Numbered from the stretch's first letter, positions 11,424 to 62,978 are shown. The stretch: 64,000 bases of DNA from an uncultured bacterium (GCA_963729625.1 CAVSOU010000011.1:544001-608000); one strand, 5' to 3'. Notes: a model not told the origin generated them from the sequence alone. Numbers and translations are program-made.

Positions 11424-12545
11424 TCACAGTGTGCTCTTAAGTTTCTGAGGAATCGCTGGGCGCCGCAGGCGCGCCCGTATATCCGCAGCGCGGTCCTGGA
11501 TCTCCTGCCGTGAGATCGAGGCCGCCTCGTACATCGCGAATATGTTTTCGTCAGGCGTCTCCGGGGAGATCGTGTGCGAGGCTGCCAGGATGTACCCGCC
11601 TCCATCTGCCGTCATGCCCGCCAGCAGGCGCTCGGTCTCGCGACGTACGTCGAGCGCCGACCCATTCGGCAGAAGTTCTTGCGTGTCCACCCCGCCCATG
11701 AAGGCGAGCCGATCACCGTACTCACGCTTCAGCTCCAGAGGCTCCATACCCGGACAATTGCTCTGCACCGGGTTGAGCACGCTCAGTCCAATCTCGATCA
11801 GGTCGGGGATGATGGAACGCAACGCTCCGCAGCAGTGGTAGGCCACCGGCAGGCCGTGCGCGTGGCCCACCTCGAACACGCGCGCGAGATGCGGCTTCAC
11901 CAGGGCGCGCCACGATCGCGGGCTGAACATCATATTCTGCTGGGATGCGACGTCGTCCCCGGTCCAGAACCAGTCCAGATCGAAGCGCTCGCAGGCCAGC
12001 CGGCCCAGCTCGCACGAGAAGTCCGCGCAGCGTCCGAACATCTCGCTCGCCAGATCGGGATCGCCGGCCATGTCCAGCATGGCGTCCTCCATGCCGCGCA
12101 GGCGCCAGTACATCTCAAAGACGCATGGCGATACGTCGCAGCCGATGTACGCGCCGTCGTGCATGCCCACTATCGGGTCCATGTTGGCCAGCAAATCGTT
12201 CACGTGCTCCCGCGGAAAGGCGTAGCCCAGCACCATGTCGCGCGATGCGCCGGCCAGTGGGTAGTTCGCGATCTGGTTGAAGCCGTAGCGCCTCTCCCAG
12301 GTGATGCCCCACCAATCGCAGTGTCTGTCGCCGTCCGAGTCGTGCACGATCCCTTCCATAGCATAGTTATTGTTCACCCACGCCTGGCGGATATCGTTGC
12401 CCATCGCTTCGCCGACATACCCTGCAGGTACATCGAGTAGGCGCGCCAGGCGCTCGTTGGTCGAAGGATGAAACCACATGTACACCGGCACCCTGTCGAC
12501 CGGCTGCTTCTTGAGAGCCCTGACTACCCTTTCACGCGATTTCAC
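11424..12545 (-). CDS. Uroporphyrinogen decarboxylase family protein (MtaA/CmuA-like corrinoid methyltransferase)
   Basis: MKSRERV...PVDRVP start; D.WG..W; GDDVASQ; Zn-type YHCCG; NPVQ; FMGGVDTQ; GGGYILAASH. Confidence 0.9.
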   Translation of the reverse strand: MKSRERVVRALKKQPVDRVPVYMWFHPSTNERLARLLDVPAGYVGEAMGNDIRQAWVNNNYAMEGIVHDSDGDRHCDWWGITWERRYGFNQIANYPLAGASRDMVLGYAFPREHVNDLLANMDPIVGMHDGAYIGCDVSPCVFEMYWRLRGMEDAMLDMAGDPDLASEMFGRCADFSCELGRLACERFDLDWFWTGDDVASQQNMMFSPRSWRALVKPHLARVFEVGHAHGLPVAYHCCGALRSIIPDLIEIGLSVLNPVQSNCPGMEPLELKREYGDRLAFMGGVDTQELLPNGSALDVRRETERLLAGMTADGGGYILAASHTISPETPDENIFAMYEAASISRQEIQDRAADIRARLRRPAIPQKLKSTL

Positions 12546-29213: not shown

Positions 29214-29348
29214 CGAGTAGCCTCCGGCCCACAGCCGAAGGCCCAGTCGCTGCCCCGGAAGGAGGTGGAAGCCGGCGCATGGGATCGCCGAACCGTGCAG
29301 GAACTGTTATTGTGACGACATCCGAGTAATCGCGAAAGAGGGTCACGC

Positions 29349-46464: not shown

Positions 46465-47202
46465 TCAGACGGCGCCGGCTATGACCTGGCGGTCATGAGT
46501 CGCGACGATGCGCTGGCCCGGCTGTACGACGAGGAAGTCGTCGTCCCAGTCACCTGCCAACAGCCGGCGGACGAGCGTCATGTTCCCCACAAGCTGCTCA
46601 AAGCGCCAGCCGTATTTGGCGGCATCCTCCTGAGCCTGAGCGCGATAGCGGCCGTCTGTCTCGGATCCTGTCTCGATGTACGCTGCTCGCTGGTAGTGCT
46701 GTTGCCACCCGCCCATCACTTCCAGCAGATACTGCGCATTGTCCTCGCCGTACTTGGCCACCAGCGCCTCGTAATCGTCCTCAATACCCGTGCCCACACC
46801 CATGCTGATGCGTCTGCCCTTCGCGCTGCTGACGCTCTGGCGTTCGAGGTAGTCGTCCGAGTAGTAATACGTGCCCGGCGTCGCCGAGAACTCGGCGTTG
46901 TAGCGGTCCCGCGAGCCCAGGTAAATGGTGATGCAATCGTGCGCGCGCGGTATCGCGATGGGAATGTCCCGTGCCTGCAGACCTTCCAGGGATCGGTTGC
47001 ATAACCCGAAGGCCAGCACGATGGCCTGGTATGCAGCTGCGTCGACGGCGTCGATCTGGCGCTGCAATTCCGTCCTGAGCACGCGCGCATTGTCATGCAG
47101 GCCCTGGTCGACCAGTTCCACGTCGACTATGTGCGGTGAGCTCGCGGCCTGCAGGTACACCAGGCGCGCAAATACACTGCAGGATAGTACCTTGATACGC
47201 AC
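46465..47202 (-). CDS. DUF1638 domain protein (corrinoid-system associated)
   Basis: LSC.VF.R, GLH....LR..LQ..ID, FGLC, PRAHDCI..YLGS, PGTYY. Confidence 0.85.
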   Translation of the reverse strand: MRIKVLSCSVFARLVYLQAASSPHIVDVELVDQGLHDNARVLRTELQRQIDAVDAAAYQAIVLAFGLCNRSLEGLQARDIPIAIPRAHDCITIYLGSRDRYNAEFSATPGTYYYSDDYLERQSVSSAKGRRISMGVGTGIEDDYEALVAKYGEDNAQYLLEVMGGWQQHYQRAAYIETGSETDGRYRAQAQEDAAKYGWRFEQLVGNMTLVRRLLAGDWDDDFLVVQPGQRIVATHDRQVIAGAV

Positions 47203-47316
47203 GGATCATGTCCCCCATTCATCGGCATGCAGCATGGATGATATGTACCGGTAAGAGCAGCCAATTCTACTTCCCGCGGGGAAGTCTCGCCCAAGTCGCT
47301 TGGAGACCTCGACACG

Positions 47317-49170
47317 TCAGTCCTCTCCAGCATGCTCGAAACTCAGGGCTCGCACAAACGCGTCGACGAACTGCGCGTGTGCCGTGAGCTCCACATAGTG
47401 CACTGTTCGGGCCAGGTCTCGTGCTGTCGCTCGCCGCTCCCTCGACAGCAGCAAATGCTGCGCTCCCTGGCCCGCCGCGTTACCCACCTGACGAAACCGC
47501 TCACGCGGCAGGGCCGGCAGCATGCCGACTCGCATGGCGCTGTCCAGATCGAGGTACGTACCAAAGGCGCCGGCCACGATCACGTCCTGCAGCGCCTCGG
47601 AACGTATGTGAGCCGCGTCGAGGAGCAGCTCGGTGCCTGCCCGAATCGCGCCCTTGGCCAGTTGAATCTCGTTCACGTCGGACCGCGTGAGTATGAGATC
47701 GCGATCGTGCCCGGTTCGCGCCGCGGGGACGAGAAGGCAGAAGAACCCGGCCGCTCCTCGGTGCACCAGCGGATGGCTCTTGCTCAACGCGCCGCGAGCA
47801 TCGATGATTCCGGCGTTCAGTCCTTCCGCCACGGCATCCAGAATGCCTGATCCACAGATGCCGACCGGTGGCAGGCCGCCGATGGTGTGCACGAGGAATC
47901 CGCCGTTCTGAAACCGCACGCGCTCGATTGCTCCGGGGACGGCCCGCATCCCGTCGCGAATGTGGGCGCCCTCGAATGCGGGGCCTGAGGCGGTGGAGCA
48001 GCTCCAAAGCCGCCCATCGTGGGCAAGGGTGATCTCCGTGTTGGTGCCGATATCGAGCAGAAGCTTCGTGCGAACGCCTTTGCCGATATCGCTAGCCAGC
48101 AAGGCTGACACATGGTCCGCCCCCACATAACCTGCGATGTTGGGCGGCAGGTACAGCGTGGCGCCAGCCGCCAGCTGAAGCCCCACATCCGAAGCGTGTA
48201 TGTCCAGCGCCGCGGTCACCGTCGCAATGTAGGGCGCCTCGCCCAGCGGTCGCACCGGCAGTCCCACGAAGAGATGGTGCATGGCGGTATTGCCAACCAC
48301 CACCGCGTCGACAATGCTCGCGCGGTCGGCGCCAATCTGGGCGCAGAGCTCCTCGACCAGCTTGTTCACGGTATCGACGATACGCTCGTGCAGCACGCCG
48401 GCAGCGGCAGCCGAGGTGTTCGCATGGGTGATACGGCTGACGACGTCTTCGCCGTATGCGATCTGCGGGTTCATCGCTCCGGCACGGGCCACCGTTTGCC
48501 CCGTGGCGAGATCCACGAGATAACCCGCGACTTTGGTCGTGCCAACATCCACTGCGAGGCCCAGCAATCGTGCCTCGATCGGCAGCACTGCCACGATCTC
48601 GTTTGGCGCACTGGCCCGGTGAACCGCTAGCCGAGCAGACCACTGCTGAGCACGGAGAACGTGCGAACCCTCTTGCAGCGCCGACAAGCTCAGACGCACG
48701 TCCCGCACGCCCGCGGCCTGGACCGCGTCGGCCAGACGCGTGCCATCTGCCCGCAGGTCGTCGAGCGCAGGCTGGGCCAGGACCACGTCAATCCCAAACA
48801 CCGGGGGGTCAAGAGCGACTCCGTCCGACTGCCCCTCGACCTGGAGACGCTGCGTGGTCGACAGTGAGTCGGGTGGAATCTCGATACGCACATCGCTCAA
48901 CACAGCGGCCTGGCAAGCCAGGCGCAAACCAGATCGTATCTCCGGATCGGTGAATAGGTCTTCCTCTATGGGAGTCGGGTCGGACAACATGCCATCGACA
49001 TGGCGGACTCTGCAGGTGCCGCACGTGCCCTGGCCACCGCAGACAGCCACCAACTCCACACCCGAGGCCTGTGCAGCCGCGAGAATGGTGGTCTCCCTGG
49101 GCACGCGCGCTCTACGGCCTACAGGCTGCAGATCCACGCTCACAAAGTCCGTGCCGGCGGGATCAGCCAT
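47317..49170 (-). CDS. ASKHA-type reductive activator of corrinoid proteins (RACo/RamA-like, DUF4445) with N-terminal 2Fe-2S
   Basis: CGGQGTCGTC...RLACQ; DVGTT, NPQ..YGEDVVSRI, DIGTNTE, GPAFEG, GICGSG, AGAFG, GNAA. Confidence 0.93.
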   Translation of the reverse strand: MADPAGTDFVSVDLQPVGRRARVPRETTILAAAQASGVELVAVCGGQGTCGTCRVRHVDGMLSDPTPIEEDLFTDPEIRSGLRLACQAAVLSDVRIEIPPDSLSTTQRLQVEGQSDGVALDPPVFGIDVVLAQPALDDLRADGTRLADAVQAAGVRDVRLSLSALQEGSHVLRAQQWSARLAVHRASAPNEIVAVLPIEARLLGLAVDVGTTKVAGYLVDLATGQTVARAGAMNPQIAYGEDVVSRITHANTSAAAAGVLHERIVDTVNKLVEELCAQIGADRASIVDAVVVGNTAMHHLFVGLPVRPLGEAPYIATVTAALDIHASDVGLQLAAGATLYLPPNIAGYVGADHVSALLASDIGKGVRTKLLLDIGTNTEITLAHDGRLWSCSTASGPAFEGAHIRDGMRAVPGAIERVRFQNGGFLVHTIGGLPPVGICGSGILDAVAEGLNAGIIDARGALSKSHPLVHRGAAGFFCLLVPAARTGHDRDLILTRSDVNEIQLAKGAIRAGTELLLDAAHIRSEALQDVIVAGAFGTYLDLDSAMRVGMLPALPRERFRQVGNAAGQGAQHLLLSRERRATARDLARTVHYVELTAHAQFVDAFVRALSFEHAGED

Positions 49171-49242
49171 CACGTGCCATCCACCGGCTCACCGCTCAGC
49201 CGGGGCGTCACGCGTTCGAGCGAACTCATCAGTGCCTCCGTG

Positions 49243-50475
49243 CTACGACCGATATGCGCCGACGGCCGGCATCATGGCACTACTCCCAGGCCCGAAATAC
49301 CGCAGCAGGACGAGCGGTTCGTGGCCGGTGTTCGCAACCGTGAAGCCGGCGCGTGCGCGCTCATTGCTGACAAAGAATTCGTCCCAGGTATCCTCGCCGT
49401 AGCGCGTGGAGGTGAGCGCTTCCACGGCAAATGGCCCGACGGTCCCGTGTCCCTGGATGACGATCACGCCGCTCGCCCCGGTATCACGCAAGGTTACTGA
49501 CGCTCCCGCCTGAACGCGCAGCTCGCGTGCCGAGAAGAGATCCTGTCCCTCGATCAGGCCATAGATCACCCAGCAATCCTCGAAGCCATCCCTGCCGGTG
49601 TCGCCGATGGTAATGGGTTCGAGGTAGTGGTGTTGCTTGAACGCCGGGTCGAGATTCGCGCTCCAGTCGATCATGCTGACCAGGAAGTCCAGGTCGCGGT
49701 GCTTCTCCGGCGACACGCTTTTGACCAGCGAGCTCCACGGGTTCACACGCCCGTCGACCAGGGATTGGAACTCCGCGCTCACATCCGAGCCCCACTGTAC
49801 CTCGTAGGTGCACAGCGAACCCGGGGCATGCATGATGCCCGGAGGAATGATCCAGCCCGTGCCGGGCCTCAAGCGGTAGGCTCGCGACAGATCCAGGATG
49901 CCGTTGTCACCCTGGTCCCAGCGCTCGAGGCAACGGTAGATATCCTTCTCCGTCGTGCCCGATTCCAGCCCGAAGAACGTGTACGGAAACAAGTTGGTGG
50001 CAGCGTTCAGCTGTGTGGGAAAGTAATAGGCTTCCGGTTTCTGTTGCTGCCCGACGAGGCTGGCGTGCTCCTGCTTCTGGTGCAGATGCAGGGGGATCGC
50101 GCCCAGGTTGTCGAAGAACTTGCAGAGCGCCGGCCAGCGACCCCAGGCGGCCATCATGTCCTTGCCGATCAGCGCTGCACCTGCCGCGGAGACGGCTTCG
50201 CGCAACAGGAAGCGCCGAGCGTCGACGCCGACCACGTGGCTCAAACCCTCCTCCGCCGGCGTATTCGGTCCGTTGTCTGCCTCGGTCGTCGAGGCAATCC
50301 AGCGCTCGTTGATGCCGCCACGTGATGCGCCGAGCGCATAGAGGTCCTGCTCGGCCAGGCGCAGCCGTCTCCCAGGGATCATGCCGACCCGCGGTACCCA
50401 CGTGGGCGCCAGGTGGAGGATGCCGTCGCCGGCTTCCAGTGCGTCCTCGACACACCGCGAGATGTTTGGCTCCAT
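49243..50475 (-). CDS. Cupin-fold sugar(-phosphate) isomerase-like protein (PMI-related)
   Basis: ERW..STT, KFFDN...IPLHLHQ, KPEAYYF, HAPGSLCTYE metal-ligand pattern. Confidence 0.7.
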   Translation of the reverse strand: MEPNISRCVEDALEAGDGILHLAPTWVPRVGMIPGRRLRLAEQDLYALGASRGGINERWIASTTEADNGPNTPAEEGLSHVVGVDARRFLLREAVSAAGAALIGKDMMAAWGRWPALCKFFDNLGAIPLHLHQKQEHASLVGQQQKPEAYYFPTQLNAATNLFPYTFFGLESGTTEKDIYRCLERWDQGDNGILDLSRAYRLRPGTGWIIPPGIMHAPGSLCTYEVQWGSDVSAEFQSLVDGRVNPWSSLVKSVSPEKHRDLDFLVSMIDWSANLDPAFKQHHYLEPITIGDTGRDGFEDCWVIYGLIEGQDLFSARELRVQAGASVTLRDTGASGVIVIQGHGTVGPFAVEALTSTRYGEDTWDEFFVSNERARAGFTVANTGHEPLVLLRYFGPGSSAMMPAVGAYRS

Positions 50476-50493
50476 TGCGGCCCTCCTTCTCCG

Positions 50494-51438
50494 TCAGCCG
50501 CGCTCGGGACCGACCGGCGCTGCGCCCGCCCCTACGGCGGTGCTGTACACGTCGATGGCTCGGCAATATTGGTCGGCAATCTGACGCGCCGCTGCCGGCC
50601 GGTCAAGCGATCCGGCCAGGTAGCCCTTGATAGCCTCCCACCAGAGTGTCCGGCCGATGGCGAACCCGATATAGCCCGGAACACCCGCCGCCTGCCGCAG
50701 CCAGTGCTCTACACGTGGCTGATCCGCCGCGCGGCCGAGTACGACGCACCCCACGTGCGCACGTCCCTCGCCCCGAATTGCGGCCGCCACGCGCGCGCAA
50801 TCCGCGCGCTGCTCGAGGCCTTCTATTTTCCAGACATCGGTCTCCACGCCCGCCTCCTGGAGCGCATCGATCATCCGCAGCGTCAACGCCGGCCGCACTT
50901 CGGCGTCAAAGCGAAAGGCGTCACCGCCAACTGTTGCCAGCTGCGGAGCGGTGGGCGGGATGACCACCTCAAGAAGCAGCTTGCGATCGTGATCGTGCAG
51001 CCAGTCCGCCAGAAGCCGGAGACGAGAGGCCTGGCGCGCGTTGAGGGCCGCATCCCCGTCCGGATTGTAGCGCACGAGGACCTTGGCGAAGGGTGTCCCC
51101 ACCGCGGCTAGATGCTCGCCGAATTCGTCTCCGTACGCGAACTCCAACTCCGCTCCCCCGCTCTTCTCCACGCAAACCGCGGAGATCTCACCCGCGGCCA
51201 CTGCTCGCTTCGCGATACCGATGCCAAACTGCTCGTCCACCAGAATGCCGGCCTCATCCTTCGAGACACCCCGCGCCAGCGCGAGGTGGAACCCGTCGTA
51301 GATGACCTCTTTCGCGTCGAGCATGCGTGCGCTAACGTCAGGCGTGGCCTCGCCCGTGCTGTTGAGAAGTCCTTTCTGCAGCGTCCCGCGATGGTCGAAC
51401 GCAAGAATATACAGCGGACGGTCGTACCCAAGGGTCAT
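50494..51438 (-). CDS. DUF2090 class I aldolase-like protein (IolC C-terminal / LacD-like)
   Basis: LAFDHR, GILVDEQFG, KVLVRYNP, LLEV, DVWKIEG (Schiff-base Lys), VLGR, GFAIGRT. Confidence 0.88.
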   Translation of the reverse strand: MTLGYDRPLYILAFDHRGTLQKGLLNSTGEATPDVSARMLDAKEVIYDGFHLALARGVSKDEAGILVDEQFGIGIAKRAVAAGEISAVCVEKSGGAELEFAYGDEFGEHLAAVGTPFAKVLVRYNPDGDAALNARQASRLRLLADWLHDHDRKLLLEVVIPPTAPQLATVGGDAFRFDAEVRPALTLRMIDALQEAGVETDVWKIEGLEQRADCARVAAAIRGEGRAHVGCVVLGRAADQPRVEHWLRQAAGVPGYIGFAIGRTLWWEAIKGYLAGSLDRPAAARQIADQYCRAIDVYSTAVGAGAAPVGPERG

Positions 51439-51502
51439 GAACTCGTTCTCCTACTCAACTACGTGCCATGGATGCGCTCTGTTCCGACTCGACCAGCCGC
51501 AC

Positions 51503-52033
51503 TCATGCCTCTACCAGTCCGCGCAGGTACGCAATGCACTGCGCCACACAGTCGGCGAAAGGTGCCTCGGTGTCGACGACCAGCCGCTCCTCCTGCAGTG
51601 GTTCAAGGTTTGCCTTGAGCCGCAAATACAACTCGAAATTCCGATTTCCGGCCGGGTGCCGCGCATCGCTTTCGTCCTGATCCAGCCGTAGTCTCGCGGA
51701 CTGCTCAGAGCAGACACACTCTATGAAACGCAGCGGTAGCGCATGTTTCGTAGCGAACGACACGACGTCCTGGCGCTGATAGCGCCAGATAAACGGCCGG
51801 CCGTCGAGAATGATGCGCTTCTCTGGATCCTTGGCAGACAAGTAGCCTGCTACCTGGAGCATGATCGACAGGCAGAAATCGTCCTGGGGCGTCGAATACT
51901 CGATCTCGCCCGGTGGGAACAAAGCAGCACGGATCGCGTCTTTGTCAAGCAGGACGGCCGGCAGTTGTTTGGCCAGCTCGCGCCCCAGCGCGCTCTTCCC
52001 GGCTCCCGGCAGTCCTGCCATCGCAATGAGCAT
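51503..52033 (-). CDS. Small P-loop kinase (AAA_33 / gluconokinase-like)
   Basis: GLPGAGKS, DKDAIR, IILDG, R.R lid. Confidence 0.85.
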   Translation of the reverse strand: MLIAMAGLPGAGKSALGRELAKQLPAVLLDKDAIRAALFPPGEIEYSTPQDDFCLSIMLQVAGYLSAKDPEKRIILDGRPFIWRYQRQDVVSFATKHALPLRFIECVCSEQSARLRLDQDESDARHPAGNRNFELYLRLKANLEPLQEERLVVDTEAPFADCVAQCIAYLRGLVEA

Positions 52034-52110
52034 GTCCGTCTTCTCCCGCTATCGGGTTGGCTTGGCGCTGATTCCGCCTACCGGACCGTCAGCTCGCCTG
52101 TCTCGCCGGT

Positions 52111-53079
52111 TCACTTGCGTATCTCCCGCCCTGCCGGGTTGCGCGCGTCAAGAAAGGCCTCGACGTCCGAACGGCCCGGTATCCCCGCCTGGCCGCCGGG
52201 GCGCGTAGCCTTCAGCGCGGCGGCAGCCGAGGCGAAGTGAATTCGGTCGCCCACGGGCGCGCCGCGGGCCAACGCCGAAGCATAGGCGCCGTGAAAGACA
52301 TCGCCGCACCCGGTCGTGTCCACGGCGCTCACGGGGTATGCCGGCACATGTTCAACATGAGGATACAGGGCACGCGACGTATACCAGCAGCCGTCGACGC
52401 CGCAGGTTACGACGACCACGTCGCACGCGTCGGCCCACAGAGCGGAAACCGCGCGGCTGGGGTCGGATTCGCCTGTGAGCTTCTCGGCATAGTCACGTGA
52501 CACAATGAGATGGTTCACCAGCGCTTGCAGAGCCGGCAATCCGGAGGCGACCACGTCGCCCTCGAAATCGGCGACCACGGGGATACCCGCGTCTCGCGCG
52601 ATCGTTGCCGCGCCGACCATCCCTTCCAGGCCATACGGATCGACGAAGAGCACCCGCGACGAACGGACAGCCTCAGCCACATGGGTCGCGTCTGGAGCGC
52701 CGAGGGCGCCGGCCGGATCAAAGAACAGGGTGCGCGTCGCGCGCCCGATCTCCACGATGACGGTCGAGTGGATTGGCCGCGCGTCTGTCAAGCGCACCAA
52801 GCGCGTGAGATCGATGCCTTCCGCGGCCAGCCTCGCGACGACGAACGACGACAGATCGTCATAGCCCAGGATGCCCGCATACATGCAGCGAGAGCCGAGT
52901 CGGGCAGCGGCCACCAACGCGGTTGCCGTCAGCCCGCCACAGTGCCGCTCCTGACGTTGCACCCGTATCTTCGAATCGACAGGCGGATATGCCTCGACGT
53001 AGAGCAGGTCGTCGACCGCAGCGGAGCCCAGACCAAGCACATCGATCATGCCATCGGGCGAAAGAGAGATGTCAGTCAT
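52111..53079 (-). CDS. PfkB family carbohydrate kinase
   Basis: GG..ATALVAAARLG, VVVTCG..G, VDTTGCGDVFHGA. Confidence 0.95.
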   Translation of the reverse strand: MTDISLSPDGMIDVLGLGSAAVDDLLYVEAYPPVDSKIRVQRQERHCGGLTATALVAAARLGSRCMYAGILGYDDLSSFVVARLAAEGIDLTRLVRLTDARPIHSTVIVEIGRATRTLFFDPAGALGAPDATHVAEAVRSSRVLFVDPYGLEGMVGAATIARDAGIPVVADFEGDVVASGLPALQALVNHLIVSRDYAEKLTGESDPSRAVSALWADACDVVVVTCGVDGCWYTSRALYPHVEHVPAYPVSAVDTTGCGDVFHGAYASALARGAPVGDRIHFASAAAALKATRPGGQAGIPGRSDVEAFLDARNPAGREIRK

Positions 53080-53109
53080 GATGTGTGTCCCACGACGTAC
53101 TGAGTTCTG

Positions 53110-54537
53110 TCATCCCAATTTCCCCGGATAGCGCTGGTTGAGGGCAATGACCAACGCAGCCAGGCCCCGGCGGCGTGCCGTCTCCGCGAAGCGCGTCACA
53201 TAGCTTTCCAGCGGTGCCACCGAGACTTCGCCTGTGCGATGCAGGTCGATGGCCTGCAGCATCGCCTCGGCGCCAAGCTGCGAATCGGGATGGCCCTCGG
53301 CATTCCTGATCGAGTTAATGGCCGATCCGGCCAGGAAGAGAACGCTCTCGGCCAGACCGTGCTCTTCGGCGTCAGCCAGGTTCGGTCCGATATTGCCCTG
53401 GTCGAGAGCGCCTGCACGGGCCACCATGGTCGGCCGAATCCCGGGCACCGCGTGCGTAAGCGCATGCTCGGAGGCCCGCCATTCGGCGCCATAGGGGCGG
53501 ATGTACGGCGCACCCGGGCGCACCGGCGCCGTCTGGCGGAGATCGATGCCGTCCAGACGCGCCAGGTAATCTATTATCTCGCGCCACATGCCGCGGGTCT
53601 TGACGCAGATACCGGCGTTGTGCCCGTAGATGACCGGCGGGTGCTCCATGTGCCGCGTGGCGTCACGGACCATGCGCACGGTTCCACCCGCGAAGGATTC
53701 GCTGAACATCACGCCGGTGGCCCCCGCGGCGCATACCGCGTGTACCGTCTCCAGAATCTCGTGGGGCGCGCCGGTGATATGAGGCGCGAAGATCAGCCCG
53801 TGACCACCCCTGGCGTCCCGTGTTCGCTCGATGGCCGCGACGGCACGTCGCGTCCGTTCCGCCACCGGGGAGTATGGAAGATCGGGATAAAGGTTCTCAT
53901 CTTCCTTGACGAAGATGAAGAGCGGACAGGCGGCAACATCGTCCATCAGGGCCCCGACGTCCTCGGCCGTAATCCCCGCGGTCGGCTTGAGGATGGTGCC
54001 AAAGGCCGGCTGTTCGGGCGCTATACCGGTCAGTTTGCGGATGCCCCCTGGACCGTATGCCGGGCCGGGGAAGCTGGAGAGGACCTGCTGCGGGATCTGC
54101 AACCCGACCAGGCGAGCGTCCATGTGCTCGTAGAAATCGAAAATGACGGCGTTGCAGACCGTGTGCAGCACGTCAACAGAGGTGAGATGACCATCGGGGT
54201 GCAGCAGCATCTTGAGCGGAAACGCCATGTGCACGACGCCAATGCGCCCGCTGGGGTCGAATGCATCGATGCCGACCCCGCGCCCGGTGCACTGCTCCAA
54301 CAGCGAGCCCGGTGGCACATGCCGCGTGCCGCTGGTCGCGTGGTAGCTGATCTCCGGAACGGCCTCGGCGAGCGTTATCGACCGCAAAGCGAAGAAATAG
54401 GTCGCTACGATCGCATCGTCCAGCTTGGGCGCGGGCTGAGCGTCCAGGCTCGCCTGCACAACCTGCCGAAGCTGGGACTCGGAAGCGTCGAAATCGTGTG
54501 ACAGTGCCTCGATCGTCTGTGTGTTCAGCGATGTCAC
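53110..54537 (-). CDS. RuBisCO-like protein (form IV), divergent
   Basis: FPGP.YG..GIR, GTILKP..G, carbamylation motif KEDEN, IYGH, LARL.G.D, AG.AI....HP; no rbcS or prk in the window. Confidence 0.85.
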   Translation of the reverse strand: MTSLNTQTIEALSHDFDASESQLRQVVQASLDAQPAPKLDDAIVATYFFALRSITLAEAVPEISYHATSGTRHVPPGSLLEQCTGRGVGIDAFDPSGRIGVVHMAFPLKMLLHPDGHLTSVDVLHTVCNAVIFDFYEHMDARLVGLQIPQQVLSSFPGPAYGPGGIRKLTGIAPEQPAFGTILKPTAGITAEDVGALMDDVAACPLFIFVKEDENLYPDLPYSPVAERTRRAVAAIERTRDARGGHGLIFAPHITGAPHEILETVHAVCAAGATGVMFSESFAGGTVRMVRDATRHMEHPPVIYGHNAGICVKTRGMWREIIDYLARLDGIDLRQTAPVRPGAPYIRPYGAEWRASEHALTHAVPGIRPTMVARAGALDQGNIGPNLADAEEHGLAESVLFLAGSAINSIRNAEGHPDSQLGAEAMLQAIDLHRTGEVSVAPLESYVTRFAETARRRGLAALVIALNQRYPGKLG

Positions 54538-54609
54538 TCTGTCCCTCTTTTCTCTGTCAACAATGTGCTGGCTGCCTCACACACCGGGCATCCTTGTTCC
54601 CGAGACACG

Positions 54610-54640
54610 ATTCATGAAACGGAAGCTTGTATTCATGAAA
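54610..54640. promoter_or_regulatory. Paired operator ATTCATGAAA x2, 21-bp period, upstream of the RLP gene
   Basis: Identical 10-mers at 54610-54619 and 54631-54640, each with palindromic core TTCATGAA. Confidence 0.6.
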
Positions 54641-54696
54641 ATACCGGCATAACCACCTATTGCCCCGCCAACGAGAATGTCGGCTCCGCGGGCATG

Positions 54697-55329
54697 TCAT
54701 GCGGCGAGCACCTGGCGTGCCACCCGCACCGCACTGGAAGCATCCGTCGCGTAGCCGTCCGCCCCAATCTCATCCGCGTAGGCCTTGGTGATCGGCGCCC
54801 CACCTACCAGAATCCGCACCTGCCCCCGCAGCCCCGCCGCCTCAATCGCCGCGATGATCACCTTCATGTTCGTCATCGTGGTCGTCAGCAACGCCGACAT
54901 CGCCACCACGTTGGCCCCGTCGTGGATGGCTTGCACGAACTTCTCCGGCGCCACGTCCACCCCCAGGTCCATAATCTCAAAGCCCGAGCCTTCCAGCATC
55001 ATGGCGACCAGGTTCTTGCCAATGTCGTGCAAGTCCCCCTGCACCGTGCCGATGGCCACTTTGCCGCTCGATGCCACCCCTTCCTCCACCAGGTGCGGCT
55101 TGAGCACCGCCAACGCCCCGCTCATGGCCCGTGCGGCCACCAGCATCTCGGGCACGAAGACTTCTCCCTCTTCGTACAACTGGCCGACCTTGGCCATGGC
55201 CGCGATCAGCCCCTCGCGCAGCAGCGTGCCTGCATCGATGCCCTCGGCCAGTCCCTGCGTGACCTTGGCCACGGCGACCTTCGCCTGTCCCTCGACGACC
55301 GCCTCACGTAGCTCCTCGAGTACTGCCAT
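54697..55329 (-). CDS. Corrinoid (B12-binding) methyl-carrier protein, MtbC/MttC/MetH-cap type
   Basis: M..VG.LYE.GE.FVPEML.AARAM; GDLHDIGKNLV (DxHxxG); DLGVDV; SALLTTT; VGGAP; IGADGY. Confidence 0.96.
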   Translation of the reverse strand: MAVLEELREAVVEGQAKVAVAKVTQGLAEGIDAGTLLREGLIAAMAKVGQLYEEGEVFVPEMLVAARAMSGALAVLKPHLVEEGVASSGKVAIGTVQGDLHDIGKNLVAMMLEGSGFEIMDLGVDVAPEKFVQAIHDGANVVAMSALLTTTMTNMKVIIAAIEAAGLRGQVRILVGGAPITKAYADEIGADGYATDASSAVRVARQVLAA

Positions 55330-55521
55330 GATGTTTCAACTCCACCTTCTACGCTTCATAATCCCGATCCGATAGGAACGGCCACAAGCAGCCGCGACCA
55401 TCTCACGATCGCCAAATGCCTGAGGACCGTTCCTGGTTCGAAGTATATTGTAGTCACCGCCGCCTCACTTCCTCCAGTTTCTCCACCTGCTGTCGTGACG
55501 AGGAATCCGCGCACATGCTGG

Positions 55522-56301
55522 TCACGTTCCGTCCGCCAGCACCAGCACGCACTGGCGACGCGGATGCGTCGTCACATAGATCGGAGTTCGGTAGATCTCC
55601 GAGAGCAGGGGCGCGGTGAGTGTCTCGGCGGGCGATCCCACCGCCGCCAGACGGCCGTGGTGCATGAGGGCAATGTCGTCCGCATAGGCCGAAGCAAGGT
55701 TGAGGTCATGCAGGATCACCAGGATCGCTTTGCCGTGCTCGGCCAGCTTGCGGCTCAAACGCATCACCAGTTCCTGGTGCCCGATGTCCAGGCTTGCCGT
55801 GGGCTCGTCGAGCAGCAACACGCCAGTCTCCTGAGCCAGGGCGCGGGCCAGCAACGTACGCGAGGCCTCGCCGCCGGAGAGCGTCGGATAGGCGCGCGCT
55901 CGGAACGGCTCCATTTCCGTGCTTGCCAGTGCCTGCCGGACGATCCGCCGATCTTCAACGGGCGAGATATCGCGGCGGGCAGCATGGGGATAGCGCCCCA
56001 TGCCCACCACATGCTCTACCTGGAAGGCGAAATAGATCAGCGCGTGCTGGGTCATTACAGCCCGCAGGCGCGCCAAATGGAGCGCGGAGTACGACCGTAG
56101 CGGACGACCCTCGAGCAGAATCTTTCCCGCGGTCGGCTGCAAATCGCCGGCCAGCAGGCGGAGCAGTGTCGATTTGCCGGCGCCGTTCGGCCCTACAAGC
56201 GCCAGGACACGGCCGGGCGTGAGCGAGAGGCTCACGTCACTGACCAGCGGGCTCGGCCCCGCGTGATAGGTGACGTGGTCGGCAGCCAATGCTGGCATCA
56301 T
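55522..56301 (-). CDS. Heme/cobalamin-type ABC transporter ATP-binding protein (HmuV-like)
   Basis: GPNGAGKST, YPTLSGGE..R..LARALAQ, LDEPT..LD..HQ, LHDLNLA. Confidence 0.92.
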   Translation of the reverse strand: MMPALAADHVTYHAGPSPLVSDVSLSLTPGRVLALVGPNGAGKSTLLRLLAGDLQPTAGKILLEGRPLRSYSALHLARLRAVMTQHALIYFAFQVEHVVGMGRYPHAARRDISPVEDRRIVRQALASTEMEPFRARAYPTLSGGEASRTLLARALAQETGVLLLDEPTASLDIGHQELVMRLSRKLAEHGKAILVILHDLNLASAYADDIALMHHGRLAAVGSPAETLTAPLLSEIYRTPIYVTTHPRRQCVLVLADGT

Positions 56302-57398
56302 ATCCGGCGACCGCTGAGTGTGCTCTTGTGACGGACGAGCCAGAGGAAATAGGGACAGCCGGCCAGTGCGGTCAGCGATCCAACCGGTATCTCCGCGGGC
56401 GAGGCAATGGTGCGTGCCAGCACATCGGCGAGCACCACCAGCAGCGCCCCGACCAATGCGCTCGCTGGTAGAACTACGGCATGGTCGGGCCCCAGCAGCA
56501 TGCGCATGAGGTGCGGGACAAGCAATCCGACGAACCCCACGATACCGACAACGGCCACTGCGGTCGCCGTGAGCAGCGAGGTGGCAGCAAGGAGGATGAG
56601 CCGTGACCGCGCCACGTGGACGCCGAGGTAGTACGCGTCACGATCGCCGAGAGAAAGGAGATCCAGTGCCCGTGTCCAGCGCGACAAGAAGAGTATGCCA
56701 ATCAAGGCAAGTGGCGCCGCGACAGCCACGTCATTCCAGACTGCCCCGCTCAGACTGCCGAGCTCCCAGAACGATACGCTGTTGAGCGCGGCGTTGTTTG
56801 TAGCGGCGATGAGCAGCCCAACCGCCCCGGCGACGATTGCGTTGACCGCAATGCCGGCAAGCACCATGGTCAGCATGTCGGCCTGGCCATCGTGGACCGC
56901 CAGCATGTAGACGATGCCGGTTGCCGCCAGACTGCCGCAGGCAGCCGCCGGCAACATAGCCACCAGGCCAAGGCTTGATCCGCCGATCCACAGCATCAGC
57001 ACAGTGCCCAGAGAGGCGCCGGCCGAGCTGCCAAGCACCGCGGGATCTGCCAGGGGATTGCGCAGGAGACCCTGCAGCGTCGCCCCGGATAGGCCCAGAC
57101 AACAGCCGACTAACGCGCCGAGCAGCACCCGCGGCAGGCGAAGGGACCACAGCACGCCGTCCTGAATGCCATCGGGTGAGGCGATGCCCGGCCACCCCGC
57201 GTGGCGCAGAAGAATGCCGGCAACCTGAGGCACGCTGATCGCCACATCTCCTATGCAGAGGCTCAGGAGCATTGCGAACAGCAGGGCGGCAACCAGCGCA
57301 ATGAATGTGAGCCAACGCCTTGACGTCGAGACCGCGCTGTGCGGTGGGTCCAGGCGTTGGCTCATCTCTCCCGCGTCGTCGCCGGCCAATGCGGGCAC
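56298..57398 (-). CDS. FecCD/BtuC-family permease (HmuU-like); alternative start 57365
   Basis: RLPRVL, LQGLLRNPLADP..LG.S.GA, GIVGFVGLLVPH, EIPVG.LTAL.G.PYF. Confidence 0.93.
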   Translation of the reverse strand: MPALAGDDAGEMSQRLDPPHSAVSTSRRWLTFIALVAALLFAMLLSLCIGDVAISVPQVAGILLRHAGWPGIASPDGIQDGVLWSLRLPRVLLGALVGCCLGLSGATLQGLLRNPLADPAVLGSSAGASLGTVLMLWIGGSSLGLVAMLPAAACGSLAATGIVYMLAVHDGQADMLTMVLAGIAVNAIVAGAVGLLIAATNNAALNSVSFWELGSLSGAVWNDVAVAAPLALIGILFLSRWTRALDLLSLGDRDAYYLGVHVARSRLILLAATSLLTATAVAVVGIVGFVGLLVPHLMRMLLGPDHAVVLPASALVGALLVVLADVLARTIASPAEIPVGSLTALAGCPYFLWLVRHKSTLSGRRI

Positions 57399-58402
57399 TA
57401 CTTCAACTCGGGATGCAGTCCATGGACCAGCTGGGCGAGAGCCTGGCCGGTTCGCGGGCCCATGTTGCCCAGGAAGTCATCCTCATAAATGAGCACGCGA
57501 TGTGCGCGACCGGCCGGAGTCAGAGAGACCCCCGGCAATTTGAGCAGCCCCGCCATGCCGCCGACAGAAGCGGCACCGGACTTGAAGACCAGCAGGATGT
57601 CGGGACGGGCCTTCACGAGCGCTTCGGGGGTGAGAGGGACGTAGCCGAAGATGCCGGATGCGCCGGCGGAATCCACGCCGCCGGCGGCGGTAATCAGCGT
57701 GCTAAAGCTGCTGCCCTTTCCCGCGATCAGGTACGTGTTGGCCTGCGCTTGCACGAGCATGAACACGACGCGCGGCCTGCTCGTGGCCCGTTTGGCGAGG
57801 GCTTCCGCGGCGGCGATCTGGGCGCCGACCACTTTGTCCAATCGCTGTCCCGCCGCGACAACGCCGAGTGCCGCTGCCACCTCGGCTATGCGCCCTTGCA
57901 CTGCCTGTATCAGGTTGCCGGTGATCGTCGTATCGCCTGACTTGATGATCACGACTCGCACGCCGGAGCTGCGCAACTGGGAGATCACGGACGGTGGTCC
58001 GGCGTCGGGAGTGCCGATGATTATGGAGGGCTTGAGCGCAAGAATAGGCTCTGCCGTGAGCTGGCGCTGATAGCCGATGTTGTGGAGCCGCGCCGCCGCG
58101 GCCGGGTAGGTCGCGCTGAGATCGGTACCCACCACGTCGTTGCCCAGGCCAAGTGCCCAGATGATTTCCGCCACATCCCCATTCAGAGCTACGATGCGCA
58201 TTGGGCTCGGCGCCACCGCGACAGCATCACTGTGGGACGCGTGGGCCGCGGGCGCGGGGTTATATATGGGGGCGGCAGCGCCAAGAGCCAGCAGCACCAG
58301 GAGCGTGCCGATAGCACTTGCCCGTCCGACGCCGCCCAACTTCGAGAAGCGCCGCGGCGTCTTTGCGATAGGGGACGGCACGCCAGAAATGGAGTAGTGC
58401 AT
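57398..58402 (-). CDS. Heme/cobalamin-type substrate-binding protein (HmuT/PhuT-like)
   Basis: RIVAL.G..AEIIWALG, VGTD.S.TYP, IGYQRQL..E.IL.L.P; AGGAGG RBS before ATG 58402. Confidence 0.88.
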   Translation of the reverse strand: MHYSISGVPSPIAKTPRRFSKLGGVGRASAIGTLLVLLALGAAAPIYNPAPAAHASHSDAVAVAPSPMRIVALNGDVAEIIWALGLGNDVVGTDLSATYPAAAARLHNIGYQRQLTAEPILALKPSIIIGTPDAGPPSVISQLRSSGVRVVIIKSGDTTITGNLIQAVQGRIAEVAAALGVVAAGQRLDKVVGAQIAAAEALAKRATSRPRVVFMLVQAQANTYLIAGKGSSFSTLITAAGGVDSAGASGIFGYVPLTPEALVKARPDILLVFKSGAASVGGMAGLLKLPGVSLTPAGRAHRVLIYEDDFLGNMGPRTGQALAQLVHGLHPELK

Positions 58403-58704
58403 GTGTTCCTCCTTTGCCATTCACGAGCCCTCACTCAGCTTCGACAACTCGAAATGCGAAGCCTGATTCCTCATTTCACATGGCGCCTGTCAACTCGAGG
58501 GCTACACGTATCGTATCCTGTCAGGGGGTCTGCGTGACGCGTCCGCCCGTGGAGACATTGTCCCGATGACTGAAGTGCTACTCCAGAGCAGACAGTCCCC
58601 GCCCGTGAGAAAATGAGCACGTCCGCACTCGTTGTCGGTCCGAACTCACGATGGACCGGTGACGAACGGTTGAGGCGCGAATCTGTTTTTCGTGGAGCGT
58701 AGAG

Positions 58705-60361: not shown

Positions 60362-60393
60362 ATAGATGACGACGTGAATAGATGACGACGTGA
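60362..60393. repeat. Perfect 16-bp tandem duplication in a divergent promoter region
   Basis: ATAGATGACGACGTGA x2. Confidence 0.85.
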
Positions 60394-60527
60394 AACGCCA
60401 TGAACCCATATCGTCGCTGGGATTCCGCGGCGCGTTCCAGGCACCGCAACAGGGGATTGCGTCGCATCGCTCCATTGCACCAGAATGGGTCATTGAGGCG
60501 CCGCTAAATCTCGGAGAACCATGCATC

Positions 60528-62978
60528 GTGCCTGAAACGTGTAACCGAATACATCCGGTTATCGGCATGATCAGCCCACGGCTCGGCGACGAGTTCTTTG
60601 GCAACCTGGCCTTCGGTAGCCAGCGCGTGGCGCTCGAGGCCGGTGGTCAAGTCATCGGCCTGCAGACGCCGAGCCAGTGGCAGGACACGCCCTCGTTACC
60701 CGTTGCGGGTGCCGCGGTCTCGTTCGGACATGAGCTGGTCGATGCCTTCATAGTCGTCCTGGACGCCGTCAGCGCGCATGAGCTCCAGCACCTCGGGCGT
60801 TCTAGGAAGCCCATAGTCACCGTGTGCGCCGACCATGTCGATTTGGGCATACCCGCGGTCTTCCCTGATAATCGCGCCGGCATCACCGAGATGGTTCGGC
60901 ACCTTGTGCAGCACGGGCATGTGCGTATTGGCTTCGCGGGGTGCATGAAGTTCGCGGACACGCTCGAACGGCACGCCGCATATGAAGCGGCGTTGCGCGA
61001 TGCGGGCTTGGAACCCGATCCGCGCCTCATCTTCCACGCAACCGACATGGATCAGCCAGGCGGTGAGGCGGCGGCCGCGGAGTTGTTGGCCGCCGGGATG
61101 CCGTGTACCGCTCTGTGCGTGGCAACCGACCAAAACGCCATTAGTCTCGTCGACGCTATTCGGCGCGATGGCTACGCGGTGCCGAGGGATCTCGCCGTTA
61201 CTGCGTTCGACGACCTGGACATCTGTGCCCTGGTCGCCCCGTCCCTCACCACGGTCCAGCAGGACAACGCCGAGATTGGCGCGGCGGCCGCCAGACTGGT
61301 ACTGGCCATGCTCGAGGGCGAGGCTGTGCAGGTGCGTCGCTACTATGTTCCGACCGTGCCGGTGTTTCGGCAGTCGTGTGGGTGTTGGGTCTCCAAGGGT
61401 GCAGAAGCGACCGAGCTTACCGCGACGTCGTCACCCGAATCCTGGGCCACGAATCTGGGCGACGCGATGGTCCGAGCCGCACTTCAGGGCACGTCCACCT
61501 CGTCCGATCGCGACGCTGCTCGGTTACGCGACGGCATTGACCGGTGTATTGCCGTGCTCGATGCAGTGCTTGGCGGGTCCGTGCAGCCACCGCCCGGCGC
61601 CATGGCTGGCGCGCTGCGCGCGATATGTGTGGCCGCAAACAGTGTCGAGACTGTCAACCGCGCGTTTGGAGTGTTCCAAAGGGAAGCGGCGGGTCGCGCC
61701 TCCCAGACCAAGGATGCCGTGCTGGCGAGTCGAGTGGCCGACCTGATCGACGATCTGCGCGCCGAGCTGATCTATGCGGTCCGGTTGCCATACGTCAAGA
61801 GCTTCGTCGAGGCGCAGGACAGCGCTCGCTCCAATTACCACAGCACGCTGGCGTTGCTCGAGCCGCAGTATGGCAGCCCGCGCGATCTTGCGTGGCTGTG
61901 CCAGACACCGGTGCTGGCTGGCTATCTTGGCCTCTGGAGAGACGACGTCCCGGGCTCCGCGCTGACTGTCGTCGGCGGCTATCAGCGCCGGGCGACCGCG
62001 CGGACTCAACTGGGCGAAGTGCAGCGGCCCGAGGCCTTTCCAGCCCTGGAAATGTTTGGCGTGATACCGGACGATCCGAGCACCATGATCATGGTAATTC
62101 CGGTGCACACTGCTGAGCACGATTGGGGTGCGCTCGCCGTGCTTTGCGAGATTGAGCGGCAGTCGACATTGGATGCGTCTGCCGTGAGACAGTGGTCGGT
62201 CCTGCTGGCGGCCGCCCTGGAACGCGAACGGCTGCAATCAGTGCAGGTGGCGGCGCGGGAAGCCGCGGAGCGACTAGCCCAAACGCACACCGAGTTTCTG
62301 GCCTCGATCAGCCATGAGCTGCGCACACCTCTCACGATCATGCTCGGCTATTCGGACCTCCTCCTGGCGCGCTGGGATGCTCTGGCCGAGAATACGCGCC
62401 GGGACTATGTTCGGCGAGTCGTGGCATCAGCGACGCGTCAACAGCGGCTCGTCGAGGATCTGCTGTTGGTCAGCAAGGTCGAGGCCAACGCCCTCGACGT
62501 ACGCCGCGAGCTGGTGGATATTCCCGTACTGATTGCGCAGGCTGCCGATGACCTGCAGGTAGCCTACGCCGGGCAAACAGTGACGGCTCATGGACCCGAC
62601 GATCTGCACGTCATCGGCGATTCAATGCGCCTCGGCCAAATCATCACGAACCTCCTCGACAACGCGGCCAAGTACTCCGAAGAAGGTAGCCCTGTCGAAG
62701 TCACCTGGTCTCGAGAGGGCACTATGGTCGTGGTGCGTGTACGCGATCGCGGCAGGGGCGTGCCGCAGAGTGGCCGGGAACACCTCTTCAGCCGATTTGG
62801 ACGGATGCCGGGCAGCAAGATCCGCGGTGGCAGGGTGGGAACGGGCCTCGGCCTCTTCCTTGGCCGCCAGCTCGCCGAGCTCATGGGTGGCCGGCTCGAG
62901 CTCGAGGATACCGGACCGGATGGCAGCTGTTTTCGCCTTGCCATCCCGGCGATAGAGGACTTGGCCGCACGAAGCTGA
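60528..62978 (+). CDS. Soluble sensor histidine kinase with N-terminal LacI-type sugar-binding domain
   Basis: PDNRAG...HL..HGH.RI.F, D..A, VP.DLAV..FDD, PSLTTV.Q; H-box SHELRTPL; NLLDNA.KY, D.G.G, GTGLGL; no TM helix seen. Start codon uncertain. Confidence 0.9.
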   Translation: MPETCNRIHPVIGMISPRLGDEFFGNLAFGSQRVALEAGGQVIGLQTPSQWQDTPSLPVAGAAVSFGHELVDAFIVVLDAVSAHELQHLGRSRKPIVTVCADHVDLGIPAVFPDNRAGITEMVRHLVQHGHVRIGFAGCMKFADTLERHAAYEAALRDAGLEPDPRLIFHATDMDQPGGEAAAAELLAAGMPCTALCVATDQNAISLVDAIRRDGYAVPRDLAVTAFDDLDICALVAPSLTTVQQDNAEIGAAAARLVLAMLEGEAVQVRRYYVPTVPVFRQSCGCWVSKGAEATELTATSSPESWATNLGDAMVRAALQGTSTSSDRDAARLRDGIDRCIAVLDAVLGGSVQPPPGAMAGALRAICVAANSVETVNRAFGVFQREAAGRASQTKDAVLASRVADLIDDLRAELIYAVRLPYVKSFVEAQDSARSNYHSTLALLEPQYGSPRDLAWLCQTPVLAGYLGLWRDDVPGSALTVVGGYQRRATARTQLGEVQRPEAFPALEMFGVIPDDPSTMIMVIPVHTAEHDWGALAVLCEIERQSTLDASAVRQWSVLLAAALERERLQSVQVAAREAAERLAQTHTEFLASISHELRTPLTIMLGYSDLLLARWDALAENTRRDYVRRVVASATRQQRLVEDLLLVSKVEANALDVRRELVDIPVLIAQAADDLQVAYAGQTVTAHGPDDLHVIGDSMRLGQIITNLLDNAAKYSEEGSPVEVTWSREGTMVVVRVRDRGRGVPQSGREHLFSRFGRMPGSKIRGGRVGTGLGLFLGRQLAELMGGRLELEDTGPDGSCFRLAIPAIEDLAARS

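Follow-up and report, generated by a model that had tools for sequence, protein, structure and literature searches.

An arrangement of corrinoid and sugar genes that hints at B12-dependent methyl removal from sugars in a soil or sediment bacterium

Corrinoid methyltransferase systems combine a small His-on corrinoid protein with an activase of the RACo/RamA type, and sugars are not among their known methyl donors, which comprise aryl methyl ethers, methanol, methylamines, methyl thiols and quaternary amines. Polymers of plants, algae and microbes commonly contain methylated sugars and cyclitols (4-O-methylglucuronate, 2-O-methylfucose, methylrhamnoses and pinitol, for example), and the known demethylation of methylated sugars is oxygen-dependent. 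In the portions of the literature covered by our search, the corrinoid systems that turned up act on aryl ethers and chloromethane, and these portions describe neither a corrinoid-dependent demethylation of sugars nor a RuBisCO-like protein (RLP) linked to corrinoid genes. Here, we analyze a stretch of 64,000 nucleotides from an uncultured bacterium (GCA_963729625.1 CAVSOU010000011.1:544001-608000), hereafter the window, whose genome (G000) is 87% complete. It contains a run of genes in which a corrinoid carrier protein and its predicted activase enclose a form IV RLP and four further sugar genes, an arrangement that gives a hint of B12-dependent sugar demethylation in a soil or sediment bacterium.

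The run consists of eleven open reading frames (ORFs), all on the minus strand and spanning positions 58420 to 46465 (Table 1; ORFs were called with longest-ORF starts, and families assigned by Pfam and NCBIfam cut-offs). The eight genes from the corrinoid protein to DUF1638 had been listed as co-oriented in a preliminary description of this DNA, and their orientation and order are borne out; they are separated by gaps of 159, 30, 77, 64, 18, 69 and 114 bp. Directly upstream, three further co-oriented genes (55522-58420) encode a BtuF/BtuC/BtuD-like ATP-binding cassette (ABC) importer, and the 192-bp gap 5' of the corrinoid protein ORF is the largest among the eleven genes. Like known corrinoid methyltransferase systems, the locus encodes a small corrinoid protein and a RACo/RamA-type activase, and the likely partners belong to the URO-D superfamily, one of them with MtaA as nearest solved relative. 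It differs from these systems by the lack of a methyltransferase gene and of a pterin-binding methyltransferase II, by the five sugar genes that separate carrier and activase, and by the 44 candidate methyltransferase matches scattered in carbohydrate loci of the genome. As no URO-D, MttB, MtaB-like or Pterin_bind match was found among the eleven genes with Pfam, these do not form a complete corrinoid O-demethylase or methyltransferase operon, and to speak of a corrinoid methyltransferase locus, as had been done, was too strong for the region of 46.4-58.4 kb, which has no URO-D, MttB or pterin-binding gene. The sole URO-D-like gene of the window (11424-12545) lies 35 kb away from the run.

Table 1. 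Features of the window discussed in the text, with positions counted from its first nucleotide.
Feature	Position	Strand	Basis and remarks
BtuF-like periplasmic binding protein (Peripla_BP_2)	57398..58420	-	Pfam; NCBIfam matches below cut-off
BtuC-like permease (FecCD)	56298..57398	-	Pfam 301 bits; NCBIfam BtuC NF007081 255.9 bits vs cut-off 461
BtuD-like or heme-type ABC ATPase (ABC_tran)	55522..56301	-	Pfam, NCBIfam
Corrinoid methyl-carrier protein, 210 aa	54697..55329	-	B12-binding_2 cap + B12-binding domain
Form IV RuBisCO-like protein (RLP), 475 aa	53110..54537	-	PF00016
PfkB sugar kinase	52111..53079	-	Pfam; nearest solved relative YihV
AAA_33 P-loop small-molecule kinase	51503..52033	-	Pfam, NCBIfam
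DUF2090, predicted class I (LacD-like) aldolase	50494..51438	-	Pfam
X410, bicupin like type I phosphomannose isomerase, 410 aa	49243..50475	-	Fold match; no Pfam family
RACo/RamA-like reductive activase of corrinoid proteins, ATP-dependent (predicted)	47317..49173	-	Four Pfam domains
DUF1638 protein	46465..47202	-	Pfam
URO-D/MtaA-like protein, candidate methyltransferase	11424..12545	-	PF01208
GFO_IDH_MocA oxidoreductase	12676-13779	-	Pfam; beside URO-D-like gene
ThuA	13776-14498	-	Pfam; beside URO-D-like gene, next to GFO_IDH_MocA
Hybrid sensor kinase with LacI-type sugar-binding domain	60390..62978	+	Pfam; similar gene near G001 PfkB/AAA_33/DUF2090 (L031:12970-15612)

To the reading that this locus is a lineage-specific mosaic, in which corrinoid supply and a sugar-phosphate route have merged in one co-oriented run, we give an even chance. 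The sugar genes between carrier and RACo make up two modules, one formed by the RLP and the bicupin protein X410, the other by PfkB, AAA_33 and DUF2090. In a congeneric genome (G001), the RLP (83% identity), X410 (75%) and a URO-D-like gene (77% to that at 11424-12545) are contiguous and adjoin DAGK, LPG-synthase, helicase and DUF1848 genes matching 30-38 kb of the window, and AAA_33, DUF2090 and PfkB (54-65%) lie together 420 kb from this module, near a hybrid sensor kinase with the same domain make-up as the one at 60390-62978. RACo (68%) stands alone on a different contig of G001, and DUF1638 (84%) and three corrinoid proteins (82-84%) are found on still other contigs or far off. The cluster of the window is therefore a lineage-specific assembly of at least three modules. 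At the level of gene order, the arrangement in G001 is also independent evidence that ties the pair of RLP and X410 to one particular URO-D-like gene. Orthologs of this gene in two other genomes (G337 and G076) have as contexts a peptide-type ABC transporter, and sulfur-carrier and Cys/Met genes, with no RLP genes.

What we observed are the genes present, the folds, the conserved residues, and where and in which contexts the families occur; we infer from these the scheme that follows, and with it all substrates, the donor and acceptor of the methyl group, joint transcription of the genes, and their coupling. The BtuFCD-like importer, the carrier, RACo and DUF1638 would keep a Co(I) carrier loaded and active, and would serve methyltransferases of the URO-D/MtaA-like kind whose genes are located elsewhere, within sugar and sugar-acid loci, with the gene at 11424-12545 as the best candidate for a partner. 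Methylated sugars or cyclitols would be demethylated by the URO-D-like enzyme together with the carrier, and one resulting sugar would enter the route encoded in the run: the bicupin resembling phosphomannose isomerase (PMI) would turn an aldose into a ketose, the YihV-like PfkB would phosphorylate the ketose as a 1-kinase, and DUF2090 would split the product as a class I aldolase. A second phosphorylated keto intermediate would be processed by AAA_33 and the RLP, the latter through Mg2+- and carbamate-driven enolization leading to isomerization or to decarboxylation of a beta-keto acid; the RLP itself would not use corrinoid. It is plausible that the corrinoid machinery shares a transcript with one downstream sugar route. 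In its broadest form, the proposal would be that a URO-D/MtaA-like family present in dozens of copies in some soil or sediment bacteria demethylates O-methylated sugars, sugar acids or cyclitols in an oxygen-independent way, via a shared corrinoid carrier kept active by RACo and DUF1638, and that this system is co-expressed here with a new RLP and PMI-like route consuming a demethylated, probably 6-deoxy, sugar; this we regard as possible but tentative, with the chances on balance against it.

The corrinoid protein carries a B12-binding_2 cap, a B12-binding domain and the motif D99-x-H101-x-x-G104, whose D99, H101 and G104 are invariant in 26/26 aligned sequences, which makes it a protein of the MtaC/MtbC/MtgC kind, short of the specific NCBIfam equivalogs (scores of 212.8 against a cut-off of 370 for MtgC and of 173.5 against 350 for MtbC). 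A tblastn search of G000 gave two carriers, the one of the window and an 85% identical paralog on contig C10 (C10:939054-939683), placed directly downstream of a URO-D-like gene and opposite GntR, sugar ABC transporter and MR_MLE genes, that is, in a sugar-acid locus. The URO-D-like gene 5' of this second carrier (C10:~939,730-941,116; L021:11730-13116) is split in two frames just past H-x-C-G, which reflects either a frameshift or faulty assembly. Fused forms exist, since many relatives of the corrinoid protein make up the C-terminal part of a protein of 300-1000 aa.

RACo has its Fer2, linker, middle and ASKHA C-terminal domains all above Pfam cut-off, which places it with RACo/RamA; it is not an AcsV equivalog (NF040756, 425.8 against 800). 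Both full-length RACo and DUF1638 were found by tblastn in one copy each in G000. According to the part of the source at hand, DUF1638 is genetically linked to B12 reactivation in other bacteria (PMC5764234). RamA-like and DUF1638 proteins of a split methionine synthase and of glycine betaine demethylation are reported from Phaeobacter and Ruegeria in the portions consulted of PMC5764234 and PMC12478193, and there, as here, a protein with B12-binding cap and domain, a ferredoxin-plus-DUF4445/RACo protein and DUF1638 are encoded together; our locus differs from these sets by the sugar genes in between, and its genome by a full-length MetH elsewhere and by the absence of any MttB family gene among those found in G000. 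A role of the corrinoid protein, RACo and DUF1638 in a split MetH was rejected: the carrier is not needed for it because a full-length MetH frame of 1153 aa (Pterin_bind, B12-binding_2, B12-binding) exists on contig C7.

Concerning the methyltransferases, a genome profile search of G000 gave 44 matches to URO-D (PF01208). In the approximately 130 kb that were annotated, these genes sit among MR_MLE, 2-Hacid_dh, SDR, DHDPS, AP_endonuc_2, GFO_IDH_MocA, GntR/FCD and sugar ABC genes and FGGY, PfkB and Dak kinases, and an 86-kb part of C10 (1,104,000-1,190,000; L025-L029) holds at least 11 ORFs with a URO-D match, interleaved with sugar-acid genes. URO-D expansions also occur in G001 (at least 38 matches), G031 (30) and G038 (14), most relatives having 0-4, and the arrays of G022 and G031 lie beside sugar-type transporters, GH2, a gene of the GlcNAc 2-epimerase family, DHDPS and SIS. 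Among 41 relatives (a tally that includes the unpublished G018, on which nothing rests), a small B12-binding_2 match (frame of at most 300 aa) is present in 5/5 genomes with at least seven URO-D matches and in 5/36 of those with at most four, these genomes being kin and not independent. As regards the sugar demethylation via cobalamin proposed in the preliminary description, both G000 and G001 give real evidence of a tie of URO-D-like and corrinoid genes to sugar loci; the locus itself contains no methyltransferase gene.

The URO-D-like protein encoded at 11424-12545 scores 87.5 bits with PF01208 and lies below the cut-off of every NCBIfam MtaA model. Its best solved relative is MtaA (4ay7; expectation value, E, 3.2e-5), in an alignment that retains the H-x-C motif, with H-C-C-G set against H-I-C-G, and that sets the second Cys of MtaA against an invariant His of the URO-D-like protein; H237, C239 and H324 are invariant in 26 sequences. 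The H-x-C and second Cys of MtaA are what we take to be its Zn-ligand positions. The ortholog group comprises at least 2744 relatives, the best 120 of which are 66-100% identical. A complex model of the carrier with this protein reached 0.68, against 0.00 for the best control; 116 of the 157 solved complexes attained this mark, compared with 2 of the 215 mismatched pairs. Its runs share at least 98% of contacts, the pLDDT (predicted local distance difference test) of the partner is at least 88, and the modelled interface takes in carrier residues 98-103, which form the B12 loop. The model supports a predicted binding of the carrier to the URO-D-like protein.

Characterized RLP pathways are those of the MtnW enolase, of the Rhodospirillum rubrum RLP with its cupin, and of apionate (OiaC/OiaX/OiaT). 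The RLP of the run shares with them the fold of the RuBisCO large subunit, the retention of K175, carbamyl-Lys201 and Mg ligands, the loss of carboxylase residues, and a gene position beside kinases and a cupin-fold protein. It matches PF00016 with 37.8 bits (cut-off 30.1), and its closest solved relative is 8dht (E 5.2e-19). Aligned to the solved RuBisCOs 1geh and 8dht, it keeps the equivalents of K175, K201, D203, E204 and H294, whereas carboxylase residues of 1geh are replaced (K177 by T, R295 by N, H327 by Q), all in what we take to be the RuBisCO numbering, with K201 as the carbamate. By these residues it is a true form IV protein, predicted to have kept the enolization machinery and lost the carboxylase residues. 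It differs from the characterized RLPs by its own invariant motifs, by other gene partners, and by scores far below the NCBIfam equivalog cut-offs, namely 27.7 against 513.6 (TIGR03332, MtnW), 49.4 against 409 (NF007095, MtnW), 65.5 against 700 (NF042437, OiaX) and 75.1 against 497.45 (TIGR03326, form III). It therefore falls outside every characterized clade, which supports the preliminary description on this point. At least 1633 relatives at E up to 0.001 were obtained among 8000 scored candidates, the best 120 being 64-75% identical and bearing source names from Planctomycetes and Verrucomicrobiota. Invariant throughout an alignment of 22 members (44-100% identity) are the K184 segment (GTILKP), K211-E-D-E214, H306-N307 and R334-Q335. 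The RLP is scarce in the phylum of the window, with matches at E up to 1e-60 in 4/401 genomes.

The neighbourhoods of its relatives show this protein in sugar loci of other kinds. We compared 31 other RLP loci, including 12 species-representative and 16 metagenome loci (one of which duplicates L007 and six of which are shorter than 4 kb), and the corrinoid protein, RACo and DUF1638 occur in 0/31, so that the conserved linkage of RLP and corrinoid genes on which the preliminary description had staked its pathway is largely gone. The 12 representative loci contain no relative of the corrinoid protein, RACo, DUF1638, X410, PfkB, AAA_33 or DUF2090 at E up to 1e-5. Instead, the RLP recurs with GFO_IDH_MocA, AP_endonuc_2, an alpha/beta hydrolase and ribulose-phosphate 3-epimerase (in full in L007 and L011, partially in L008-L010), with a small cupin and mannitol dehydrogenase (L001, L006 and L012; L001 also has GH28 and an SSF transporter), or with E1 alpha and beta subunits and SIS (L004 and L005). 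URO-D genes were found in only one of these 12 loci, L012, where three lie at most 6 kb from the cupin, mannitol dehydrogenase and RLP. Links to the second module exist as well: an AAA_33 ortholog (59%) is directly upstream of the RLP (76%) in L032, a weaker PfkB match (41%) is 9 kb from the RLP in L034, and in G298 the RLP (65%) is followed by GFO_IDH_MocA and, 3.5 kb on, by a PfkB ortholog (57%). In G007 the RLP (62%) sits among ROK, sugar ABC transporter, AP_endonuc_2, epimerase and a PfkB-like frame; this genome is approximately 94% complete, yet it has no B12-binding_2 match and no DUF1638, and its RACo match covers the ferredoxin domain only. Because the 31 other loci lack corrinoid genes and G007 has an RLP without them, the RLP, judged by gene content, works without B12 and does not depend on corrinoid genes. 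The unknown proteins of 455 aa and 452 aa that lie next to the RLP cluster in G001 and in L012 showed no relationship to each other.

The remaining sugar genes combine features of two described routes. X410 has no Pfam or NCBIfam match, and its AlphaFold2 model (pLDDT 87.4, predicted template-modelling score 0.90) matches the type I phosphomannose isomerases 5zvr, 1zx5 and 1qwr in Foldseek (best E 1.3e-16, range 1e-16 to 1e-15, template-modelling scores 0.56-0.75). Its H130, H132, E148 and H216 are invariant and align with metal-site positions of the window's own PMI paralog, and on this modelled fold X410 is probably a metal-dependent aldose-ketose isomerase. The cupin isomerase of the preliminary description is thus retained as regards a PMI-type-I bicupin fold in the model, but not as a family match by sequence models. 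The X410 family includes at least 7997 proteins at E up to 0.001 among 7999 scored candidates, with no name or family model, and relatives about 50% identical are found in 5/401 genomes of the phylum, G000 and G001 included. Among the loci of these relatives (L023, L051-L053), that of G200 places the X410 relative beside an RbsD/FucU mutarotase and SDR, and in that of G091 the relative is flanked by a weak match to alpha-L-fucosidase and by an Fe-alcohol dehydrogenase, contexts that give a thin hint at 6-deoxy sugars. An X410 paralog of G000, on contig C17, lies among a sugar ABC transporter, SDR, GFO_IDH_MocA, a hydrolase and AP_endonuc_2.

With the core of the sulfo variant of the Embden-Meyerhof-Parnas route (sulfo-EMP; YihS, YihV, YihT), the run shares the succession of an isomerase, a PfkB kinase and a class I aldolase, and its PfkB is closest to the sulfofructose kinase YihV (E 9.5e-40, against 3.3e-26 for ribokinase). 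Sulfonate recognition in YihV relies on the triad K27, N109 and R138, as stated in the portion consulted of PMC8006165; in the alignment of our PfkB with 7ag6 the K is kept, N109 becomes F and R138 becomes Y. A sulfoquinovose pathway was rejected, as just 1/3 of the triad is kept, which sets the locus apart from the sulfo-EMP core. Because the residues of the sulfonate pocket are replaced by Phe and Tyr, the substrate of PfkB probably has an uncharged distal end, e.g. a 6-deoxy or O-methyl group. DUF2090 (110.3 bits in Pfam) is not fused to PfkB here. When fused to IolC, it has been proposed to be a 2-deoxy-5-keto-gluconate-6-phosphate aldolase, in the part of PMC9007349 available to us, and it is this predicted IolC partner aldolase, along with the same succession of functions, that our locus shares with the lower myo-inositol pathway (IolB, IolC, IolJ or DUF2090). 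It differs from that pathway by low scores with the corresponding models (76.5 bits against 300 for IolC_N, TIGR04382; 54.9 and 33.2 against 600 for NF047869), and from both the sulfo-EMP and myo-inositol routes in its isomerase, a PMI-like bicupin unlike YihS and IolB in type, and in the presence of a further P-loop kinase and of the RLP. The succession of isomerase, kinase and aldolase put forward earlier holds at the level of prediction, with a PMI-like X410, a YihV-like PfkB and a LacD-like DUF2090.

How far are the two halves of the run coupled? They may simply be juxtaposed, the corrinoid set serving non-sugar methyl donors or general B12 upkeep and the five sugar genes having been inserted or shuffled; we hold this to be rather unlikely, though a rival of some weight, since all parts are dispersed in G001, corrinoid genes are missing from the other RLP loci, and G007 combines an RLP with the absence of a B12-binding_2 match. 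In addition, a genome of a distant member of the phylum, G038, has a Na/Ca exchanger gene (L055:4277-5350) next to RACo, an unassigned ORF of 427 aa, a carrier and a pterin-binding gene, uninterrupted by sugar genes and with URO-D matches in the same stretch of the contig, which hints that the sugar genes arrived later in the window, where a Na/Ca exchanger gene is also found beside the btu genes (58705-59709). Mere juxtaposition fits less well with eleven co-oriented genes and gaps of at most 192 bp, with a URO-D-like gene that adjoins the RLP and X410 in G001 and URO-D genes close to the RLP in L012, and with a second carrier likewise placed in a sugar-acid locus. Several points weigh against the loosely coupled mosaic that we favour. 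The dispersal in G001 may mean that the fusion in the window is an accident of rearrangement. The ratio of 44 URO-D-like genes to two carriers is unusual, many of these proteins may use no corrinoid, and the good result of the complex model may reflect a likeness to solved complexes of methyltransferases and corrinoid proteins. Co(I) nucleophilic cleavage of aliphatic sugar methyl ethers is chemically harder than that of the known aryl methyl ethers. A dedicated methyl-corrinoid:tetrahydrofolate methyltransferase was not found in G000, where MetH and one 345-aa frame are the only matches to Pterin_bind. The importer may carry a corrinoid, heme or a siderophore, its substrate not being fixed by NCBIfam models, of which those for BtuC and a corrinoid ATPase match below cut-off and that for a heme ATPase above it. 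A scan for consensus promoters and terminators gave 2 and 7 sites, respectively, against 2.1 and 5.9 expected from shuffles.

At the other extreme is a single dedicated pathway, as originally proposed, with cobalamin-dependent demethylation of a methylated or branched sugar, phosphorylation, rearrangement by the RLP, and aldol cleavage. The shared cluster, its content and spacing, and an RLP outside every characterized clade speak for it, but the locus lacks a methyltransferase gene, and since no further copy of RACo or DUF1638 was found in the genome, both are probably shared. A dedicated RLP-plus-cobalamin pathway is unsupported because the RLP clade occurs for the most part without corrinoid genes and conservation of the cluster does not extend even to the genus, and together with the dispersed parts in G001, the 31 loci and G007 this makes it improbable. 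A salvage route for methylthio or deoxy sugars can also be imagined, in which isomerase and 1-kinase would yield a 5-methylthio- or 5-deoxy-ketose 1-phosphate, this would be isomerized by the RLP, as happens in Rhodospirillum rubrum, or else cleaved by DUF2090, and an MtsA-like URO-D protein with the carrier would recover the S-methyl group. The hydrophobic replacement of the YihV sulfonate pocket in PfkB would suit such substrates. Known RLPs act on methylthio-pentulose phosphates (PMC4958253, in the part consulted), and homologs of MtaA-type methyltransferases have been proposed in methyl-sulfur metabolism (PMC10418091, likewise in part). We consider this route very improbable, given the MtnW scores of 27.7 bits (cut-off 513.6) and 49.4 bits (cut-off 409), the company of RLP relatives (GFO_IDH_MocA, AP_endonuc_2, ribulose-phosphate epimerase, mannitol dehydrogenase, GH28, sugar transporters), the lack of a methylthioadenosine nucleosidase or phosphorylase gene in the locus, and the presence of MtnA-like frames elsewhere in G000. 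These matches to methylthioribose-1-phosphate isomerase (C19:3527-4511 and C18:25745-26647) are broken into several frames on two small contigs.

The picture of the mosaic is diffuse, with a large URO-D/MtaA-like set whose examined members lie in carbohydrate loci and with carrier machinery in one run with an RLP sugar route, and it is arguably more interesting than a dedicated pathway. The locus and the 44 URO-D-like matches provide a concrete set of proteins, made of the carrier, the activase, DUF1638 and one URO-D-like partner. Moreover, the RLP clade and the PMI-like family are both large and strongly conserved, and assigning either would mean a new reaction in well-studied superfamilies.

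A few observations concern the surroundings of the run. No cobalamin riboswitch was detected in the window at gathering threshold, nor at E up to 1 in 54400-58900, and a search for repeats flanking the sugar genes gave only short matches of chance size. The GFO_IDH_MocA and ThuA families, which accompany the URO-D-like gene of the window, both adjoin RLP relatives elsewhere (L007-L011 and L010, respectively). The window contains a second sugar locus (23944-30326) with a type I PMI, ROK kinase, LacI regulator and ribose-type ABC transporter; the matching position of G001, next to DAGK, holds RLP, X410 and URO-D-like genes instead.

Two more genes of the sugar-rich region on C10 of G000 deserve mention. 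A cytochrome P450 gene (L025:621-1862), which may be an oxygen-dependent counterpart, is separated by approximately 1.4 kb, which include a 2-hydroxyacid dehydrogenase gene, from a gene of the URO-D-like kind. In the same region, a glycyl-radical enzyme (pyruvate formate-lyase-like plus Gly_radical) and its radical S-adenosylmethionine activase (L028:644-3954) are encoded near GFO_IDH_MocA, a 3-keto-disaccharide hydrolase and a pyridoxal phosphate-dependent decarboxylase.

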